From: Candidatus Berkelbacteria bacterium
GTDB taxonomy: Bacteria; Patescibacteriota; UBA1384; JACPKC01
Assembly: GCA_016198415.1 (NCBI GenBank)
Contig: JACQIO010000016.1
Coordinates: 6,084 to 70,083 of the forward strand
DNA: 64,000 nucleotides
Direction: 5' to 3'
Shown one piece after another: positions 3,561 to 62,306 of the stretch. The position numbers were made by a program, and so were the translations under genes. Every line of letters starts with the position of its first letter. The stretch's first letter is position 1. Below the pieces are notes generated by a model that was given only the letters and a program-made list of their open reading frames with translations, searched no databases and was not told the origin of the DNA.

Positions 3561-3570
3561 TCATCACCAA

Positions 3571-3599
3571 TTGACAACCGCCGCGCCTTCAGGTATGGT
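3571..3599 (+). promoter_or_regulatory. sigma70 promoter TTGACA-N17-TATGGT
   Basis: TTGACA 3571-3576, TATGGT 3594-3599. SD GAGGAG precedes ATG 3710. Confidence 0.5.
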
Positions 3600-3709
3600 G
3601 ACGCGTTCTTGCACCAGAACAATTCGGACAACGAAACGCTCCTTTTGGGGCGCGTTCTGCGTGCAGACAGATCACACGCGGGCGTGGCCCGCATGAGGAG
3701 AAAGTCAAA

Positions 3710-5278
3710 ATGTTCAAAGTTCTGTTCGTTCAAACCATCGGCCTCGTCATGACCCTCGGCCTCGCTGGGCTGGCGCTCGGGAGCCTCCGGCTCCTCTGGG
3801 CAGCGCACCGGGACAATGGGTCCTACTCGTCCCGAACGCCGTGTTGGCCGGAGCGCCGGACCTGGTGGCTGCGGGGTGCCAGTTGCATCGTGGCTGCCTG
3901 GAGTGCGTACGCACTGGGGAGGATCTTGGCGCCAGACACCTGGCTCTGGTTCTTCCTGGTCACGTACACGACGACCTGGCTGACGCTCTCTACGCACCTC
4001 AGCCGGACGATGTGGCGGACCAACTCCCGTCAGCCGCGGATCCATCGCCTCTCATGGGGTGTGGCGATCTTCGCACTGATGGGTGGCACCATGACCGTCC
4101 TCGCGACCACTTGGTCCCTGTTCATGGTGGCGGCAATCTTTGTTGCCCTGCCACGGATCTGGGAGTGGTGGTCCGAGTGGTTCCAGGATGTGCGGTACCG
4201 CCGGCACCGGCCGGTCGCCGCGCTCGGCATGGGGCTGGCGATCCTCGTCGGCCTGAGCTGGATCACAGTCATGAGCGGGCGCGTTGCCATCGAAGCCCTC
4301 TTGGGGACGAAGGTTATCGTGCGGGCCGGCGGAGTCGTTACGCCGCCGCCACCTCCGCCGCCGGTGGCGCTTCCCAAGTGGATCCTCGGCAAAGGGGTCT
4401 GGATCGTCAACCTTGACCACGCCGAGGGCGGGGACCTCGAGGCCATCGTGGCGAAGGCCAAGAAGTACCACGCCGACCACCTCCTGGTGAAGCTCTTTGA
4501 CTCAGAGTGGGATGAGGGGCCGTGGATCCCGTTTCACGGCGCCGACATCCGCCCGGTGGCCAAGGAGCTCATCGCGCTCGCCCACGCCGAGGGCATCAAG
4601 GTCTACCTCTGGGGGTACGTCTACGGCAAGCGGACCCAGTGGGAGATCGGGCTCGTCCGGGAGTGCCTCATGCTCAACCCCGACGGCTTTGTCTATGACG
4701 CCGAGGGGGAGTGCAAGAAGGAGGGCCGAACCGAGAACCTGGAGGAGATCTGCCGGTCGGTTACGGAATGGCGGGACAAGTACCGGCCGAACGCACTGCT
4801 CGGGTTCTCGTCGTTCGACGGGACGATCATGCACGCCGACGGAGGGTTCCCGTACGCGGTCTTCGACCGCTACTGCGAGGTCTTCATCCCCCAGTGTTAC
4901 TGGAAGGATGATGCCACCGGCACTCCAGCCGATCGTCTCAGCTGGGCGTCGGAGCAGTGGGTCGCCTCGGCGGCCAAGTACCGTGCGCGGGGGGCAGGCA
5001 AGTCGTTCGATCGAATCCTCCCGGCTGGCCACGCCTACGACCCCAGACTCAACAGTAACCTTCGGGAGATCCCGTATGAGGAGGTCGTGGACTTCCTTGA
5101 ACGGGCCGAAGGCTTCTGGGGGGTGTCGCTGTACACCTACGAGTTTATGGGGCCGGAGCAGTGGCAGGGCTTCCGGGACGGGCCCGGGTCGCTCCGGGAG
5201 AAGGCCGAGCGGTACGGCGAGGAGCTGCGCAAGGCGCGGGAGGCTAAGCGTAGCGGCAAGAAGGGAAAGGAGGGCTGA
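3710..5278 (+). CDS. Polytopic membrane protein with poly-Pro linker and C-terminal TIM-barrel glycoside-hydrolase-like domain (GHL/DUF4015-type guess), Lys-rich tail
   Basis: 522 aa. About 6 N-terminal hydrophobic helices, PPPPPPP linker, then WIVNLDHAEGGD...IKVYLWGYVYG...LNPDGFVYDAEGE. Good SD. Domain assignment by similarity only. Confidence 0.8.
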   Translation: MFKVLFVQTIGLVMTLGLAGLALGSLRLLWAAHRDNGSYSSRTPCWPERRTWWLRGASCIVAAWSAYALGRILAPDTWLWFFLVTYTTTWLTLSTHLSRTMWRTNSRQPRIHRLSWGVAIFALMGGTMTVLATTWSLFMVAAIFVALPRIWEWWSEWFQDVRYRRHRPVAALGMGLAILVGLSWITVMSGRVAIEALLGTKVIVRAGGVVTPPPPPPPVALPKWILGKGVWIVNLDHAEGGDLEAIVAKAKKYHADHLLVKLFDSEWDEGPWIPFHGADIRPVAKELIALAHAEGIKVYLWGYVYGKRTQWEIGLVRECLMLNPDGFVYDAEGECKKEGRTENLEEICRSVTEWRDKYRPNALLGFSSFDGTIMHADGGFPYAVFDRYCEVFIPQCYWKDDATGTPADRLSWASEQWVASAAKYRARGAGKSFDRILPAGHAYDPRLNSNLREIPYEEVVDFLERAEGFWGVSLYTYEFMGPEQWQGFRDGPGSLREKAERYGEELRKAREAKRSGKKGKEG

Positions 5279-53906: not shown

Positions 53907-53993
53907 CCAGTGGGCCGGGGATCTTCTTCTCCGGCCCACTCTTTGTCTATGCACGCTCATCACGAGCCCGCACCAGAATGCTATGCTGATCCT

Positions 53994-54575
53994 ATGCCAT
54001 ACAAGCCAAGCGCAATGCTCACACTCGTCCGGCGGGCTCACGGGTCGCAGTCTCGGTCTGGCGGACGCATCCCGTATTGGCATCATTGCGCAGGTGTTGC
54101 GGAACTACTGGCGTGGGCGTTCGAGCGTTCCGGTGAAATACCAGAACCGGTGGCCTACGAAGACTTCCACCTCGCCGCGCTTGGCCACGATCTCTACGAA
54201 GACACTGAGGTAACGCGCGCCGAGATCATTGACGCATTCGGCCCGCGCGTTGACGAACTCATCGAGGCGCTCACCAACCGTCAGGGCGATGATCACCAGG
54301 CCGCGTACCATCGGCAGATCGCTACCGGCCCCGAAGAGGCTCGGCTCATCAAGCTCTGCGATCTCATTGACAACACGCTGAGTGTGGCTGAGGCGCTCCC
54401 CGAGCTTGGTCAGGACTGGGTCAAGAACACCTTCCTACCGATTGTGTCGGGAATGCAAACGGTAGTCCTCGCCGCGACGTACCCAACCTTCCCGGTCACG
54501 GGCAGGGTCCTCGGAGAGCTTCTTGCCTACGTATCCACCCGCCTGGATCACGCCCTCCAGCGGGATGATGCCTAA
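53994..54575 (+). CDS. HD-domain phosphohydrolase (HD_4-like)
   Basis: H...HD...D metal ligands (HHCAGVAELL, ALGHDLYEDT, CDLIDN). Confidence 0.7.
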   Translation: MPYKPSAMLTLVRRAHGSQSRSGGRIPYWHHCAGVAELLAWAFERSGEIPEPVAYEDFHLAALGHDLYEDTEVTRAEIIDAFGPRVDELIEALTNRQGDDHQAAYHRQIATGPEEARLIKLCDLIDNTLSVAEALPELGQDWVKNTFLPIVSGMQTVVLAATYPTFPVTGRVLGELLAYVSTRLDHALQRDDA

Positions 54576-55480
54576 GAGTCCCCGGTGGTTGCGCGGCTCT
54601 CCAGGGTGACGGGAGTGTCGGAACCAGTCTTTGTGGGTTGCACGAGTTGAATCTGCTTGTTTGAGAAGTCCGGATACGGTTCCGGATAGTGGACGACGCG
54701 ATAGGCCTTGAGGTGATCCACGTCGGTCTGGGTGAGTCGTTCGTCGGCAAAGAGTGCCTCGGGGAAGTACGGGACGAGGTCGAGTGTTTGGAAGAGCTCA
54801 ATGAGCGGACGCCAGATCCAGTCTCGCTCCTGCCAGGTGAGGCGGTCGAGGTCGTGGAGGATGATGAGCAAGAGGAGGATGCTCTCGCTCAAGATGGGGA
54901 CGATAATGAGGCTCGTCGTCGTGCCGTCGTTGATGAGGATCAGCCCGGCCCAGAGAATGGCACTCAGGACCAGGAGACTCAGCCAGAGCGCCACCGGCAT
55001 CTCGTCTTGGACGTTGTGCGTCACGCCACTGTGGCCGCGCAGGAGATCGCGCAGCTCGTAGAGCATGTGATCAAGGAGCTGCCGTTGCCGGTCAGTCTTG
55101 ACCTTGAGGGAGAGGATAAAGGCGTTGAGGGCTTGGAGTTCAGGGAGGGTCTTGGTGAAGTCGGTCAGTCGGTAATCGAGCTGGGCCTGGAGGTAGCGAT
55201 CAACATGTCCGAGGTACAGAGCCGCCTCGTCGGCATCGAAGACCTTGGTCAGCTGACGCAAGCTAAAGAGCTGGCCATCCATCTCTCGGAGCGTTGTCCG
55301 GAGGCTGCTCAGTCGGTCGTTCTGCTGGGAGATGGAGAAGCCCAGGAGGATGGCGAAGGTGAACGTGGCAATCGAGAGGAGCGTGTCAAGGACAGGCGAC
55401 TCCACCTTGCCGGGGAGAAGGATGGCGAACGCCAGGAAGATAAGGTAGCCAGCCGTGAGAATCGGTACGTAGCGTCGCAC
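54572..55480 (-). CDS. Hypothetical integral membrane protein (4-5 TM)
   Basis: Hydrophobic helices at both ends, 302 aa. Confidence 0.6.
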   Translation of the reverse strand: MRRYVPILTAGYLIFLAFAILLPGKVESPVLDTLLSIATFTFAILLGFSISQQNDRLSSLRTTLREMDGQLFSLRQLTKVFDADEAALYLGHVDRYLQAQLDYRLTDFTKTLPELQALNAFILSLKVKTDRQRQLLDHMLYELRDLLRGHSGVTHNVQDEMPVALWLSLLVLSAILWAGLILINDGTTTSLIIVPILSESILLLLIILHDLDRLTWQERDWIWRPLIELFQTLDLVPYFPEALFADERLTQTDVDHLKAYRVVHYPEPYPDFSNKQIQLVQPTKTGSDTPVTLESRATTGDS

Positions 55481-56740: not shown

Positions 56741-57991
56741 TTATGGAAGTAGTTGTTTGAAGAAATCCCGAGCTTTCCCGACCACCCCCTCCACATTGTC
56801 TAAGGAAAAGGATTTCGCGTGTGGTTCATGGGGCGTTTTCCCCTGAAGTCCCCAGAGAACCAAACCAACGCTGGTAGCGTACGTTGGGTCATCCAGCTTG
56901 TCAACGCTGCCTGCAAACTCCGTAATCGGCCGGCCAAGTTTGGCCGGCAGGTGGAGATTCTGCTTGGCCATCTCCACGAGGCCATGAAGCTGGGAACCGC
57001 CCCCGGTGAAGACGGCGCCGGCCGGGAGCGTCCCGTCCTTACCGATCTTGCGGAGCTCGTCGTTGACCATCATGAAGAGCTCGGAGAGGCGGGCCTCAAT
57101 GATCTCAGCAATGTAGCGGAGCTTGGGGCGCTCGAGCTCGCTCGGATCGATGGTGGTCAGGTCGATCGTGTCGATGTCACGGACGTCTTCTTTCAAGGCG
57201 GTGCCGTACTTGATCTTGATCGCCTCTGCTAGATCGATGGAGGTCTTGAGCCCAATCGCAATGTCGTTGGTGATGTGCATCGATCCAACCGGCAGGACCG
57301 CGGCGTGGACCAGATCCCCTTCCTCGTAGACCACCACGCCGGTGGTCCCCGCGCCAATATCAATGAGGACCACCCCGCTCTCACGCTGCCGTTTCGTCAA
57401 GAGCACCTCGGCGGTGGCGAGTGGCGAGAAGACGAGCTGGTCCACCTCCAGCCCGGTCTGATTGACGGCTCGGAGGGCGTTCTTCATGGCTGGTGACGGG
57501 CAGCTGACCACGTGTGCTTCCACCTCCAGGCGAATCCCTGTCATCCCCACTGGATCGACAATCCGATCCTCCGCATCCACCGTGAACCACTTGGGGAGGA
57601 CATGGACAATCTCTCGATTAGCCGGCATCGCAATCGCTCGGGCGGCTTCAATGACGCGGTCAACGTCCTGGGCCGTGATCTCGCCGTCCGGCCGAGAAAC
57701 GGCGATGACGCCTTTGGAGGCGATGCTTTCCACCTGAGCGCCACCCAGTCCAACGATGGCGTTCTTGAGGGGCTGTCCAGCGGTGCGTTCCACCTCCTCA
57801 AGGACGGCTGAGATCGACGAGACCGTTTCCTCCACGTCCACCACCTGTCCGCGCCGGAGTCCGGCGTTCGGCGTCTTGGTCATGGAGAGGATCTCTATGC
57901 CACCCTCGGCATAGTGTCCCGCGCAGGCCGCAATCTTCGTTGTCCCAATGTCGAGTCCCAGCACAATGTTCGATTGGGCCATGGGTGCCAA
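56741..57991 (-). CDS. ftsA: Cell division protein FtsA
   Basis: Actin-fold motifs (LDIGTTKIAA, DIGAGTTGVVV). Confidence 0.9.
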   Translation of the reverse strand: MAPMAQSNIVLGLDIGTTKIAACAGHYAEGGIEILSMTKTPNAGLRRGQVVDVEETVSSISAVLEEVERTAGQPLKNAIVGLGGAQVESIASKGVIAVSRPDGEITAQDVDRVIEAARAIAMPANREIVHVLPKWFTVDAEDRIVDPVGMTGIRLEVEAHVVSCPSPAMKNALRAVNQTGLEVDQLVFSPLATAEVLLTKRQRESGVVLIDIGAGTTGVVVYEEGDLVHAAVLPVGSMHITNDIAIGLKTSIDLAEAIKIKYGTALKEDVRDIDTIDLTTIDPSELERPKLRYIAEIIEARLSELFMMVNDELRKIGKDGTLPAGAVFTGGGSQLHGLVEMAKQNLHLPAKLGRPITEFAGSVDKLDDPTYATSVGLVLWGLQGKTPHEPHAKSFSLDNVEGVVGKARDFFKQLLP

Positions 57992-58144
57992 CTCCTCTTC
58001 TGGAATGCGTAGGCTCAGTATACCCAGCGGTTTGAACGAGTGACAAGTTTTCTGCGGTGAGTCGCTCGGGTGTGGAAAACTTTCTCTCCTGAGCGAGGTG
58101 CTATAGTATGTCTTAAGTAGTTCAACGGTGCGAGGAGGTCATGA

Positions 58145-58348
58145 ATGGAAGATCCACTCCAGAGTCCTCAAGCGGTGCCAGCGAGTTCGCCAGTCCCAGC
58201 CGATCCAGCCATGCCGGCTGATCAGCCATTGCCGGCGGCCCCGCCTCCCGCCATGCCGGAAGAGCCAGCTCCGGCGCTGCCGGCCGATCCAGCCGGTCCT
58301 ATGCCAATGCCGGACCCACTGCCTGGCCAGGGCGACCAAGCGGCGTAG
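58145..58348 (+). CDS. Small Pro/Ala-rich ORF (67 aa), uncertain
   Basis: SD GAGGAGG 6 nt before ATG, followed by a hairpin terminator. Very low complexity. Confidence 0.3.
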   Translation: MEDPLQSPQAVPASSPVPADPAMPADQPLPAAPPPAMPEEPAPALPADPAGPMPMPDPLPGQGDQAA

Positions 58349-58377
58349 TTGCACGTTCGTTGAAGGTATGACCACGA

Positions 58378-58412
58378 GTGGCCCGGTTTCACCGGGCCAC
58401 TCGTCTTGTGGA
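58378..58412 (+). terminator. Intrinsic terminator GAGTGGCCCGG-tttca-CCGGGCCACTC + GTCTTGTGG
   Basis: Perfect 11-bp stem. Confidence 0.5.
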
Positions 58413-58489
58413 TAGATATCGAACGGTCGTGATCTGTCTGTGATACAATCAACAAAAGTAACCATCGTACTCGTACAAAGGAGGGGCAG

Positions 58490-59122
58490 ATGGATCCACG
58501 GAAAGTCACGTTGCTTCGCAGCGTGCTCTCACTCGTCGCCGTCGTAGCGCTCGGCGGTGGCGTCACCTACGCGTTGTTTACCAGTAACCAGGTGACGGTG
58601 TCACAGACCCAGGTCACCACGGGAAGCGCAGATCTGAAGATCTGCAACTCCCTGAACTCAACGCCGGCTGGATCGAATACCTGGAAGACCTCGGTCTCAC
58701 CACTGATCAACTTTGATGGAATCAGCCCGGGTGACTCCGATGTCGATATCTCGACTGGCGTCTCAATCTACGTTGGAAACGACGGCGGACAACTGCAAGA
58801 TAATCTGGGGGCTGAGTGCAATTCCTACGATGCGACCGTAACTGCCGGCAGCTCGACCGTCGACATGAAAATGGTTCCAGTCGTGACCGCAACCAGCTGC
58901 CCGAACCTCTCAGGAGATCTCCAGCTACGGTTCGGCTTTGATGGTACGTTCACAGCGTATAAGACGATCACGAATTGGGGCACGAACACCAGTGCGCTCG
59001 GTCCAACCTTTGCTGTGGACGATGCCAAGCTTCTCGCCATGCAGGCCAAGCTTGCCAACGGAGTCACCCTCCAAGACGAGAACTGCACCTTCGACGTCAA
59101 CTTCACGGGCGAACAGGTCTAA
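58490..59122 (+). CDS. TasA/camelysin-family (SipW-cognate) secreted protein
   Basis: N-terminus LSLVAVVALGGGVTYALFTSNQ matches the SipW-cognate signal (..LGGGTxAxFxD). 210 aa beta-rich. Confidence 0.75.
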   Translation: MDPRKVTLLRSVLSLVAVVALGGGVTYALFTSNQVTVSQTQVTTGSADLKICNSLNSTPAGSNTWKTSVSPLINFDGISPGDSDVDISTGVSIYVGNDGGQLQDNLGAECNSYDATVTAGSSTVDMKMVPVVTATSCPNLSGDLQLRFGFDGTFTAYKTITNWGTNTSALGPTFAVDDAKLLAMQAKLANGVTLQDENCTFDVNFTGEQV

Positions 59123-59179
59123 CTCACCCTAGGTAGAGTCCCGATTCTCGATCGGGACTCTCTCCTGTGGTGAGGTGCG

Positions 59180-59716
59180 ATGCGTATACTTGGATCCATC
59201 GTCAGTAGTCTGAGCTGGGTGATCCTCGGGATCGCGCTGCTCGTTGCCCTCTCCGGCCTCCCGATCCTGCCCGGTGGCTACCGCACGATGGCGGTAGTGA
59301 GCGGTTCGATGGAGCCAGCCCTAGCTGTTGGGAGTCTGGTGCTGACACAACAAATGCCTGATCCTAGTCTTCTCAAGATCGGCGATGTGATTAGCTTCCA
59401 GCAACCTGGGGCACCCGATCGGATCATTACTCACCGGATCGCAAGCATCGAGACGGTTGGGGCTACCCAGTTCTTTCGCACTCAAGGCGACGCCAATCCC
59501 ACGCTCGATTCGTGGAAAGTGAGCTATGGCCAGATTGTTGGCAAGGTCGTCCGCGACGCTCCCAGTCTTGGGTCTCTCATGCAGGCGCTTCGTACGCCCT
59601 GGGCAGTTGCAACCTTTGTCTGGATCCCAGTTCTCGCTCTTGCCTTCCACGAGCTCTACAAGATTCACACAATTCTCATGGAGCTCCAGCTGGAACATCG
59701 ACGGAGTCTCGCATGA
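59180..59716 (+). CDS. sipW: Signal peptidase I, archaeal/SipW type
   Basis: Catalytic VVSGSMEP box, TM anchor at both ends, 178 aa. Confidence 0.85.
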   Translation: MRILGSIVSSLSWVILGIALLVALSGLPILPGGYRTMAVVSGSMEPALAVGSLVLTQQMPDPSLLKIGDVISFQQPGAPDRIITHRIASIETVGATQFFRTQGDANPTLDSWKVSYGQIVGKVVRDAPSLGSLMQALRTPWAVATFVWIPVLALAFHELYKIHTILMELQLEHRRSLA

Positions 59717-60933
59717 CACTGCGGGGTCGGGCGTTATTGATTGGTGCTGCAAGCTTTGCTCTGACGGTCGTGGCAGGACACGCGATCGCTGCCTTTCTCG
59801 GTAACACCGTTATCATCACCGGTATTTCCATTACGACGTCAGGCGGTCCACTGATCTTCGCGGCTCGGCTCTTACCGACTGCCGATACCAAGCTTGTCGA
59901 GAGCGGACCAGATGATAACTTTGGTGCGGCGGACAATCTGTACGTCAGCTCAAAGGTTGGACGCAATGAACGGTCGTTGTTCCGGTTCGATCTGAGTGTC
60001 TTGCCGGCCAGTGCCAGTCTCCAAGCCTGTTCCCTCAATCTCTGGCTTGATGGTGCGCCGGGACGCGGGAGTCGCGATCATGCCGCGTACCGATTGAGCG
60101 ATCATGAGATCGACTGGGGTGAGGGCACGCACATCGGGACAGGGGCTGATCCGGGCGAGAGTAGCTGGGACTGGTTTGCCCAGCCGAACGCCTGGACCAC
60201 GCCGGGTGGTGATCTGGCAGCCACACCAACCGATACCATCGCGACCGGTGAGGAGAGCAACGTCTGGAGGGCCTGGAATGTCTTGCCGGACTGCGATCAG
60301 CTCCAAGAGCGGTCGTGGCTCGTGCGCGACACGGTCGAGGACGCGAGCGACACCCACCGCGCTCGGTACAAGTCCAAGGAAGAGACCCTCACGGAAGAGG
60401 ATCCCTATCTGGCCGTCTCGTTCAGCGCCGATCCGGCAACCACCGCCCACGTGGTGATCAACGAGGCCTTCTACGACGTCAGTTCGGGGCAGGGATCGGA
60501 GGGTGACAACGAGTGGGTTGAGCTCTACAACCCAACCGCTACCCCAATCGATCTAGCGGGTTGGCGGCTCTGCGACAGTCAGTCCTGTGTGATGGTTCCG
60601 GCGGGCACGATCATTCCCGCGACTGAGTTTCTCGTGGCAACGCCCAACGCCTCAACGTTCGATTACTGGACCGTCCCGGCCAACCGGCAACTCGTCTTAG
60701 GCGTGGATGAGATTGGGAATGGTTTGAGTAACGGCAGTGACGCGGTACTGCTGAAGGATGCGAGTAGTGTCTTGGTTGATGCGATGAGCTACGGAGGCAA
60801 CACGAGTGCGTTCAGTCCGTCGGTACCCGGCGTCGACCCAGGCTGGTCACTCCCCCGTCTCATGCCTGGTCACGATACTGACCAGGCCACTGACTTCTGG
60901 CCGAATCCCGATCCAACTCCTGGCACGTTGTAG
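59714..60933 (+). CDS. Secreted DNRLRE-domain plus lamin-tail-domain (LTD) protein
   Basis: DNRLRE-type NLYVSSKVGRNERSLFRFDLSVLP. C-terminal LTD HVVINEAFYD...GDNEWVELYNPTATPIDLAGWRLCD. Signal peptide. Confidence 0.8.
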
Positions 60934-60952
60934 ATGAAGCTGAGCTCGCCGC

Positions 60953-61690
60953 TTACTGACCAAAGTTGAGATCGATCTTGACCTTCCCGTGTTTGACGTC
61001 GCCAACGTCTTGATCCTCAGTGTCTCGGATATCGTTGTTACCAGCGTTGACGTCCTCGTCAACGTCTTCGTCAAGATCATTGTCAGTGTGCTGCCTGACA
61101 CTGACGTCACGGTCAACATCGACGTTCGTTTGATTGCGTGAGCCGTCGAGCGTGCCAGCGTTCTGAACGCTGATGGAGATATCGTCAGAGACCTTTAAAG
61201 ATTCAACCGGTACTGCTTGGCCGTTGACCGTGACCTCGGTGCTGCGCGCCTCACGGCCGGCTGAGTCCTTGACCTGGATGGAGACGGATGCATCCTCGGT
61301 CATGCCACTCACACTGCTCGCGCTGGCCATTGCCGGTGAATCGATCTGGATGCTCGTGGTGCCGGTTGAGCGATCCAGAGTGCCCGCTGCCGGTGGCGCG
61401 CTGGCCCCGCTTCCCGATGAGGCCTGGGCTTCCACGGAGACATCCACCGTCCGTGACTGATCTAATTCTGCGGTGGTGGTGGTTGCTCCACTGGCCGTCG
61501 GCGTTCCTCCGTTTGGGGTAACCTCAACGGCTTGACCGTTGAGGGTCAAGCTGACGGGCGTCGCCTCGGCTTGCATGCTCGCCACCTGACTGGCCGACCA
61601 GCGCGCACTCATAGCAATCACCGCCAGGGCCAGGAGACCCAGGACCAGCGGCAGTCGCTCAGATGGGATGGTCAGTGATGGGCGTTCCAT
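60953..61690 (-). CDS. Secreted Ser/Thr/Asp-rich hypothetical protein (start at MERPSL signal peptide)
   Basis: Signal peptide, repetitive VxV(S/D) segments. Convergent with the SipW cluster. Confidence 0.55.
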   Translation of the reverse strand: MERPSLTIPSERLPLVLGLLALAVIAMSARWSASQVASMQAEATPVSLTLNGQAVEVTPNGGTPTASGATTTTAELDQSRTVDVSVEAQASSGSGASAPPAAGTLDRSTGTTSIQIDSPAMASASSVSGMTEDASVSIQVKDSAGREARSTEVTVNGQAVPVESLKVSDDISISVQNAGTLDGSRNQTNVDVDRDVSVRQHTDNDLDEDVDEDVNAGNNDIRDTEDQDVGDVKHGKVKIDLNFGQ

Positions 61691-61766
61691 TGCCACCTCC
61701 TCGCCCCTTGACGCTCTTACCCTTGCACAGTTTCTCGTGGCGTGCAAGTGGATGGTTTCCAAGGAC

Positions 61767-62306
61767 TCATTTTACGGTCGAGAAGCGTCGAATGGTCTGC
61801 CTGATCTCATCAACAATCCCGTGAATGCAGGGAAGCTCCTGGGCCTCGCCTTCGTTCGCCCAGACGTAGTCAGAGAAGCTCCCCATCTCGAGCTTGACGT
61901 CGCCGCCGGCGTACTCGGCAGCGAACTTGACGAGGATTGCCGGCACGCCGTCGGGGCGGACGTAGGCGACACTATTGAGATACGCCAGCGACCGAGAGAT
62001 CGCAATCCCAGCCTCCTCCATCGCCTCTCGACTCAGAAGATCCTCAATGGCGTTCGGGAAGTCGATCACGCTCCCATTCATTCGGCCGGGGTGTGCCAGA
62101 TCGTAGTCTAGCCACTCAAACTTCCCCCCAATCACGCCGTACTTGCCTGGGTGAACGATCTCTCGATCATGCCGCTTGAGCAGGAGGCAGCGCCCATCGG
62201 AACGCCGGTAGACCACCACGTTGGCCACCACATAGAACAGCTTCTCTGTCTTGGCCTGATCGATCGAAATTGCCTGAGCGGGATGCTGGACTACGGTGTC
62301 TGCCAT
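61767..62306 (-). CDS. NUDIX hydrolase
   Basis: Nudix box GGKFEW...REAMEEAGI. Confidence 0.8.
   Translation of the reverse strand: MADTVVQHPAQAISIDQAKTEKLFYVVANVVVYRRSDGRCLLLKRHDREIVHPGKYGVIGGKFEWLDYDLAHPGRMNGSVIDFPNAIEDLLSREAMEEAGIAISRSLAYLNSVAYVRPDGVPAILVKFAAEYAGGDVKLEMGSFSDYVWANEGEAQELPCIHGIVDEIRQTIRRFSTVK

Follow-up and report, generated by a model that had tools for sequence, protein, structure and literature searches.

A SipW-type signal peptidase operon encoding a remote TasA relative and a CBM96–lamin-tail protein in Candidatus Berkelbacteria: a candidate donor-strand fibre system

Introduction

Fibres of the TasA type have been structurally worked out only in Bacillus and a few archaea. 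In the Bacillus tapA-sipW-tasA system the signal peptidase SipW cuts TasA between A27 and A28, and residues 28–38 are the donor strand for fibre assembly; the N-terminus of TapA resembles this donor strand and nucleates assembly, and the start and stop codons of tapA and sipW overlap (PMC9674648, PMC10151520). The protomers of TasA filaments share a conserved interface, the 'proline box', made up of F29, P62 and Q232 (PMC10151520). A TasA-related jelly-roll subunit and donor-strand polymerisation are also found in the AbpA/AbpB (7UEG) and AbpX (9SJ2) proteins of Pyrobaculum calidifontis, where AbpB has been proposed to be a strand-donating filament initiator with adhesin domains (PMC9245690). 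Here we describe a three-gene locus, P1-sipW-P3, from a 64,000-nucleotide stretch of contig JACQIO010000016.1 of a Candidatus Berkelbacteria bacterium (the whole stretch is referred to below as the window), which encodes a remote relative of TasA, a SipW-type signal peptidase and a secreted protein with a carbohydrate-binding module (CBM) and a lamin-tail domain (LTD).

Little is understood of the way in which ultrasmall episymbiotic bacteria attach to hosts or form a matrix; in the host-attachment papers retrieved, type IV pili are the structures chiefly implicated. TasA in Patescibacteria has so far been a Pfam count (PMC9245690), one which the P1 family would escape; a search of the literature on SipW or TasA in Patescibacteria and the Candidate Phyla Radiation (CPR) returned only the one-line mention in this AbpA paper. 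The pairing of SipW with a TasA-like subunit is a known type of system, as is the presence of PF12389 homologues in Patescibacteria (PMC9245690). What is new here is a divergent subunit family not detected by Pfam, an operon architecture conserved across CPR bacteria and a TapA-like accessory protein carrying CBM96 and LTD domains on a strand-only N-terminus.

Results and discussion

A conserved three-gene unit

A first-pass annotation made from the letters of the window and their open reading frames (ORFs) had placed four ORFs in this region, all of which were recovered at the coordinates that it gave. Three of them, P1, sipW and P3, are co-directional and together span 58490–60933 on the + strand; the features of this unit are as follows.

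58490 to 59122, + strand: P1, secreted protein of 210 aa
59123 to 59174, + strand: GC-rich stem-loop between P1 and sipW
59180 to 59716, + strand: sipW, SipW-type signal peptidase I of 178 aa (TIGR02228)
59713 to 60933, + strand: P3, secreted protein of 406 aa with CBM96/DNRLRE and lamin-tail (LTD) domains

A strong ribosome-binding site (AAAGGAGGGG) precedes P1, and a database entry identical to P1 is annotated as a hypothetical protein from a Candidatus Berkelbacteria metagenome-assembled genome (MAG). The start of P3 was assigned to the ATG at 59713 and not to the upstream GTG at 59512; this ATG shares bases with the stop codon of sipW (ATGA).

The order P1-sipW-P3 was found in every related locus with enough sequence (L002, L003, L005, L006, L007, L009, L010 and L011). 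The unit is kept in L002, L003, L005, L006 and L007 with unrelated flanks, and in the Berkelbacteria loci L009 and L011 it lies within an ftsA...ybeY frame; its flanks in the window are ftsA and ftsZ upstream and NUDIX, ybeY and HD protein genes downstream. Overlap between the stop of sipW and the start of the third gene was observed in the window and in L003, L009, L012 and L013. The last two loci, which come from more distant Patescibacteria and were located via their P3 homologues, carry one or more Peptidase_M73 genes followed by an S26/S24 peptidase gene and a CBM96-LTD gene, so that the position of P1 is taken there by Pfam-recognised camelysins. The conserved unit comprises three genes.

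The L012 and L013 operons resemble the window in gene order, in the domains of the third gene product and in the overlap of the peptidase gene with the CBM96-LTD gene. They differ in that their subunits are Pfam-recognisable and duplicated, in that their CBM96-LTD protein (~700 aa) has a full TasA-like domain, and in the presence of a fourth gene for a candidate membrane anchor, so that the window appears pared down to one subunit and a strand-only accessory, with no anchor gene. This fourth gene (8093–9154 in L012, 8121–9185 in L013) codes for a protein of ~353 aa whose TasA-like body is without the donor-strand region (hhalign 94% to columns 67–181 of the A2 alignment described below) and is followed by a linker, Gly-rich or fn3, and a transmembrane helix at the C-terminus; the protein is a candidate acceptor-only membrane anchor for a fibre. 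No description of camelysin-SipW-CBM96/LTD operons of the kind seen in L012 and L013 was found in the searchable literature.

The signal peptidase and the hairpin that precedes its gene

The product of sipW scored 84.3 bits against TIGR02228, the model for archaeal/ER-type signal peptidase I (cut-off 51.85), in agreement with the archaeal-type assignment that the first-pass annotation had made from the SGSMEP motif. It scored 24.1 bits against TIGR02227, the bacterial LepB-type model, which is below the cut-off of 47, and its 74.8 bits against NF046067, the Bacillus SipW equivalog, failed the cut-off of 190. Enzymes of the Sec11/SipW type carry their catalytic serine in SGSMEP, use a histidine and not a lysine as general base, and have an aspartate in GDAN. 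All three are present in the sipW product: SGSMEP at residues 41–46 with Ser43 encoded at 59306–59308, His85 in ITHRI (59432–59434) and Asp104 in GDAN. A hydrophobic segment is found at each terminus. Judged from these sequence features, the peptidase is SipW-like in type and context and not an orthologue-level match to Bacillus SipW.

The stem-loop at 59123–59174 has an inner 12-bp stem at 59135–59161 and a minimum free energy of -36.6 kcal/mol (z = -4.8), a value equalled by none of 200 shuffled sequences. A hairpin of comparable strength and different sequence follows the subunit gene in 8 of 9 related loci. Between subunit gene and sipW the structure is kept and the sequence is not in L002, L003, L006, L009, L011, L012 and L013; L007, with a 29-nt gap, is the exception. 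The hairpin probably works either as a partial terminator or as a 3' stabiliser, holding the expression of P1 above that of the downstream genes. In a consensus scan of 57900–61900 neither a sigma-70-like promoter (+ strand) nor a T-tract terminator was called, and the same interval gave no match in Rfam.

P1 is a remote relative of TasA and camelysin

P1 opens with an N-terminus of the SipW type (GGGVTYALFTSN; N-terminal sequence MDPRKVTLLRSVLSLVAVVALGGGVTYALFTSN), in which residues 19–32 read VALGGGVTYALFTS. Its signal peptide is predicted to comprise residues 1–28 (58490–58573), with a putative cleavage site A28|L29 placed by alignment with A27|A28 of TasA. The predicted donor strand covers residues 29–47 (58574–58630), and residues 48–210 form a beta-rich body. 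The family comprises 17 clusters in a search of 5.8 billion sequences, all from uncultured CPR bacteria where named, and 41 representatives at E<1e-10 in a profile search of 1.84 billion representatives. Across the family alignment G22-x-G24-x-T26-Y27-A28-x-F30-T31-S32-N33 is invariant and four cysteines are conserved.

Searched exhaustively against the 1.84 billion representatives, the P1 profile matched about 120 further proteins of 175–200 aa at E values of 1e-9 to 1e-3, most of them in two stretches, one N-terminal and one C-terminal. When 57 of these distant matches were tested, 26 matched Peptidase_M73 (PF12389), 25 matched TIGR04088 (the SipW-cognate signal) and 11 matched the TasA model. 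PF12389-positive proteins are reached by the P1 profile at E values of 2e-4 to 3e-7 with both halves covered; P0132, matched over P1 5–206, and P0073, matched over P1 120–212, scored 31.1 and 25.7 bits against PF12389, respectively, where the gathering threshold is 22.5. We also built a profile from an alignment of intermediate P1 relatives selected by their similarity to P1 (A2). Its best hit among PDB sequences was AbpX (E 2.7e-4) and TasA structures followed at E 0.012; the P1 profile itself found nothing in this set at E<=10. In direct profile comparisons with hhalign, P1 aligned from the signal peptide to the PGD motif with B. subtilis TasA (74%) and with a PF12389-positive set obtained independently of P1 (68%). 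The length of the TasA query and its residues A28, F29, I32, F39, P62 and Q232 agree with the published papers.

The three proline-box residues of TasA have counterparts in P1. F29, P62 and Q232 correspond in the family alignment to F30 (16/16), P80 (16/16) and Q209 (14/15), the last of these equivalences being drawn by transitive alignment through A2. The AlphaFold2 (AF2) model of P1 has a mean predicted local distance difference test (pLDDT) score of 76.8; its beta-sandwich core reaches about 90, and the 40 N-terminal residues are of low confidence. Its best PDB matches in Foldseek, all weak, are donor-strand pilins, with self-complemented FimA on top (E 3.5e-3), and the match to the TasA homologue AbpA (7ueg) is likewise weak (E 0.029, TM 0.39–0.43). 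Taken together, sequence transitivity, the interface residues and the gene context support P1 as a remote member of the TasA/camelysin superfamily, a membership unconfirmed at the level of fold. The first-pass annotation had called this protein a TasA/camelysin-like substrate, and the label holds in the sense that P1 is connected through profile intermediates and occupies the position of PF12389-positive genes.

Additional TasA-like genes were observed in other loci. On L008, an unrelated MAG contig, three adjacent ORFs (128–1606, 3566–4198 and 4203–4778) have SipW-type N-termini and TasA-like bodies, one of them being a 492-aa multi-domain form. L004 and L005, from one Patescibacteria MAG (JAYRIO01), carry two P1 paralogues on separate contigs; some genomes therefore have more than one subunit gene.

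P3 couples a P1-like N-terminus to CBM96 and lamin-tail domains

Four regions were distinguished in P3.

59713 to 59790, + strand: signal peptide, residues 1–26
59791 to 59847, + strand: P1-like N-terminal strand, residues 27–45
59851 to 60432, + strand: CBM96/DNRLRE beta-sandwich, residues ~47–240
60436 to 60930, + strand: lamin-tail Ig domain, residues ~242–406

P3 matched CBM96 (PF24517) with 37.5 bits (cut-off 26) and LTD (PF00932) with 61.3 bits (cut-off 34.3), and its 31.9 bits against DNRLRE (NF033679) fell just short of the cut-off of 34. Its AF2 model has a pLDDT of 82.6 and a predicted template modelling score of 0.80, with both domains near 90 and residues 1–43 unstructured. By Foldseek, the first domain resembles a chondroitin-sulfate-binding CBM (8wab, TMt 0.77) and the alginate-binding founder of CBM96 (7vbo, TMt 0.69), and the second the Ig folds of lamin A/C and B1 (TMt ~0.7; 3gef 0.70). 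An acidic-polysaccharide ligand is known for the founding members of CBM96 only (PMC9971899). Hidden Markov models (HMMs) and fold thus agree with the DNRLRE-LTD secreted protein noted in the first-pass annotation. Among the family models named there as checks, LTD was matched by P3, whereas Peptidase_M73 was absent and TIGR04088 below cut-off in P1, and DNRLRE was just below cut-off in P3. The combination had also been described as unusual, which is true relative to Bacillus; in Patescibacteria the third gene regularly encodes it, although 3 of 12 P3 orthologues end after CBM96 and lack the LTD.

The N-terminus of P3, overlooked in the first-pass annotation, resembles that of P1. In P3 orthologues a hydrophobic segment is followed by A-x-F-x-S-N-x-V...[ST]-I-T-[TV]-[GA], with A26 and F28 invariant and N31 and I40 near-invariant, and in most of them a Pro-rich linker then leads into CBM96. 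Comparison of the P1 and P3 families by hhalign gave 86.4% (E 4.7e-6) and paired P1 14–47 with P3 12–45, the P3 motif lining up with the signal peptide and first mature strand of P1. An HMM of the P1 N-terminus, run against 1,018 ORFs from the window and the related loci, retrieved the P3 orthologues at their N-termini and outscored 300/300 shuffles for 11 of 12 of them; within the window the cognate SipW-type motif is on P1 and P3 only. This likeness suggests that P3 is a second substrate, probably cleaved by the sipW product after A26 (A26|A27), and a TapA analogue. As residues 1–43 are unstructured in the model and CBM96 begins at residue 47, P3 has no room for a TasA-like body, and with a P1-like strand and no such body it should be able to donate a strand and not to accept one. 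TapA was not among the 50 top Foldseek matches listed for P3, which may function like TapA yet is not a member of its family.

The same parts occur joined in single chains. In CPR relatives of ~700 aa, CBM96-LTD is joined to an entire TasA-like domain (hhalign 96.8%). P0194, P0200 and P0203, from other Patescibacteria, combine a SipW-type peptidase (SGSMEP/SASMQP), a transmembrane segment, an internal SipW-cognate-like motif (e.g. VTYASFTSGQATITG) and an LTD, which suggests a peptidase joined to its own substrate and processing itself. The existence of both the TasA-domain/CBM96-LTD and the SipW-LTD fusions indicates that the parts are functionally linked.

Proposed assembly and its alternatives

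From the gene identities, domain contents, conserved order, shared N-terminal motif and interface residues described above, we propose that the locus is probably an operon for a SipW-processed, TasA-type donor-strand-exchange fibre that is nucleated, capped or anchored by the glycan-binding P3. The cleavage sites, fibre formation, strand donation and ligand in this proposal are drawn by analogy with TasA, together with homology, motif conservation and context. The core of the first-pass annotation is supported in this, and a cell-surface filament or adhesin remains the probable product of the set. P1 would be the major subunit. The membrane-anchored peptidase, with its Ser43/His85 dyad, would remove the signal peptides of P1 after A28 and of P3 after A26, and the N-terminal strand of mature P1 (LFTSNQVTVSQTQVTTG) would then enter the beta-sandwich of the next P1, giving a linear fibre by donor-strand exchange. 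P3 would give its strand to the first P1 and so nucleate the fibre and cap one end of it, as TapA does; we regard strand donation by P3 as plausible and stop a little short of calling it probable. The CBM96 and LTD domains could tie this end of the fibre to a glycan. If that glycan belongs to the cell's own envelope, P3 would be an anchor; if it belongs to a partner cell or a matrix, P3 would be an adhesin. With a hairpin behind P1 and with P3 coupled to sipW through ATGA, P1 would be made in large amounts and the peptidase and P3 in small ones.

Compared with tapA-sipW-tasA of Bacillus, the locus likewise has a dedicated ER/archaeal-type signal peptidase, a major-subunit N-terminus of the GGG-x-[TW/TY]-A-x-F type, the proline-box residues of TasA as F30, P80 and Q209, and an accessory protein whose N-terminus mimics the donor strand and whose gene overlaps sipW. 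In contrast, the order here is subunit-sipW-accessory and that in Bacillus accessory-sipW-subunit; P1 is too divergent for PF12389 and differs from TasA in its four conserved cysteines and an inserted loop of ~25 residues; CBM96 and LTD replace the V-set Ig/macroglobulin-like domain of TapA; and the host is a CPR bacterium and not a Firmicute. As for Pyrobaculum, AbpA is among the best, albeit weak, Foldseek matches of P1 and the role proposed for AbpB is the one that we propose for P3, whereas the Abp operon has no dedicated SipW, negligible sequence similarity to the present locus and other accessory domains. Chaperone-usher pili (FimA/FimH, Pap) are alike in donor-strand complementation, in having a lectin-bearing subunit at one end and in a hairpin after the major-subunit gene that could give differential expression. 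They are not homologous to the present system, which has no chaperone, usher or outer membrane, and the lectin subunit FimH accepts a strand whereas P3 could only donate one.

Several observations weigh against the fibre proposal. P1 matched no Pfam family, with Peptidase_M73 (PF12389) absent at E<=0.1, and scored 15.6 bits against TIGR04088, under the cut-off of 19, so that the term 'TasA-like' is established for it indirectly. The hhalign alignments of P1 to TasA and to the PF12389-positive set cover the N-terminal 60–70 columns only, and the C-terminal half of P1 is tied to TasA and PF12389 only via intermediates. Although P1 aligned with A2 over its full length (100%), this result is circular because A2 was picked for its similarity to P1, and it was given little weight. 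The P3 of the window is the weakest N-terminal match of its family (6.1 bits, reached by 2/300 shuffles), and the window lacks the membrane or cell-wall anchor gene that L012 and L013 provide. Moreover, the need for recognition by SipW could alone account for the motif common to P1 and P3.

This last point leads to an alternative that we consider unlikely, though far from negligible, in which there is no fibre. P1 and P3 would then be independent secreted or surface proteins, P1 a monomeric envelope or matrix protein and P3 a lone glycan-binding surface lectin, and their shared N-terminus would be a determinant of SipW recognition and cleavage only. The similarity of P1 to P3 indeed extends over ~34 columns only, hydrophobic region and cleavage site included, and TIGR04088 by definition models a signal peptide. 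The motif also precedes unrelated cargo (LTD alone, P0194, P0223) and so acts like a portable tag for export and cleavage; in addition, P1 resembles known fibre subunits only weakly in fold, and the TasA monomer is soluble (PMC9674648). However, in TasA the donor strand consists of the conserved residues that directly follow the cleavage site, and of the conserved F30, P80 and Q209 of P1 two lie far from that site. The post-cleavage strand of P3 is conserved (I40, ITT motif) well past what cleavage recognition usually needs, and in the AF2 monomer it has no partner in the fold of P3 itself. The tight synteny of the three genes and the fusions of TasA-like domains with CBM96-LTD point instead to physical cooperation, as the fibre proposal would have it.

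It seems quite improbable that the sipW product is simply the housekeeping type I signal peptidase of a small CPR genome, adjacent to P1 and P3 through incidental co-expression. A motif search of the 64-kb window found no LepB-type peptidase, a result that says little about the whole genome, and the neighbourhood of ftsA, ftsZ, ybeY and NUDIX genes is syntenic in other Berkelbacteria, both of which would suit a housekeeping role. Such a role sits poorly with the retention of P1-sipW-P3 where the flanks differ entirely, with the same order in distant Patescibacteria whose first gene is a Pfam-recognised camelysin, and with the recurrent overlap of sipW and P3; single-chain SipW-substrate fusions are known, and the cognate motif is borne by P1 and P3 alone in the window. 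A reading of P1 as a camelysin-type secreted metalloprotease, directed by P3 to a polysaccharide substrate, is hardly credible. Its sole support is the name Peptidase_M73 together with the remote kinship to PF12389, whereas TasA is now seen as a structural fibre subunit (PMC9674648), and P1, which has neither a single histidine nor an HExxH-like motif, is an implausible host for a zinc site; on account of the missing histidines this reading was rejected.

If P1, sipW and P3 do encode a fibre, the locus is a compact three-protein system in which the role of TapA is taken by a carbohydrate-binding protein that only donates a strand. Strand-donating nucleators would then be modular and interchangeable, and the CBM would point to the glycan to which the fibre is tied. 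If the genes serve merely the generic secretion of two surface proteins, their value is that of routine annotation. A more speculative extension, which we think doubtful, is that Patescibacteria, whose way of life is attachment to other microbes, possess a second adhesive organelle besides type IV pili, a SipW-processed, TasA-like donor-strand fibre whose end lectin (CBM96 and lamin-tail Ig) would bind an acidic glycan on the host-cell surface. Under this host-attachment idea the window might, on an equally slender footing, represent a minimal form with one subunit and a 'strand-only' lectin cap. Its relatives could in turn, with no greater likelihood, be fuller forms: the TasA-domain-lectin fusion, the membrane-anchored acceptor-only subunit and the self-processing peptidase-substrate fusions.

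Flanking genes

Three further features lie next to the unit.

60953 to 61690, - strand: P4, 245 aa, convergent; Ser/Thr/Asp/Val-rich and acidic
58145 to 58348, + strand: small Pro/Ala-rich ORF of 67 aa (MEDPLQSPQAVPASSPVPADPAMPADQPLPAAPPPAMPEEP...)
58374 to 58404: perfect 14-bp, GC-rich hairpin upstream of P1

P4 is preceded by a GAGGAGG ribosome-binding site and contains a hydrophobic segment in its N-terminal part. Its composition is rich in serine (12.7%), aspartate (9.8%) and threonine (9.0%), and acidic residues outnumber basic ones by 37 to 16. An internal repeat, V..T.NGQAV.V, was also observed. It matched no family, gave 0.4% in hhalign to TasA-like proteins and carries no SipW-type N-terminal motif. 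Only two clusters were found in the search of 5.8 billion sequences. A relative occurs at the same place only in the closest locus, L009, and shares the acidic C-terminal half (40% identity over 117 aa); P4 is absent from L011, L002, L003, L006 and L007. The four-gene unit whose conservation the first-pass annotation had wished to see checked was therefore rejected, P4 being restricted to two clusters, missing from most related loci and not TasA-like. P4 is a lineage-specific orphan and a neighbour, not a part of the module.

The 67-aa ORF, which had no Pfam match, is also preceded by a GAGGAGG ribosome-binding site and is followed by the 14-bp hairpin (z = -3.7) just 5' of P1. It recurs only in L001, a near-identical short contig, and L009 and L011 carry unrelated genes in its place. 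The G+C content of the window genome is ~61%. Beside ftsZ, the window contains genes for an HD_4-domain protein (53910–54575, + strand) and a bestrophin-like membrane protein (54572–55480, - strand); other genes adjoin ftsZ in L009 and L011, and the neighbourhood is therefore syntenic only in part.

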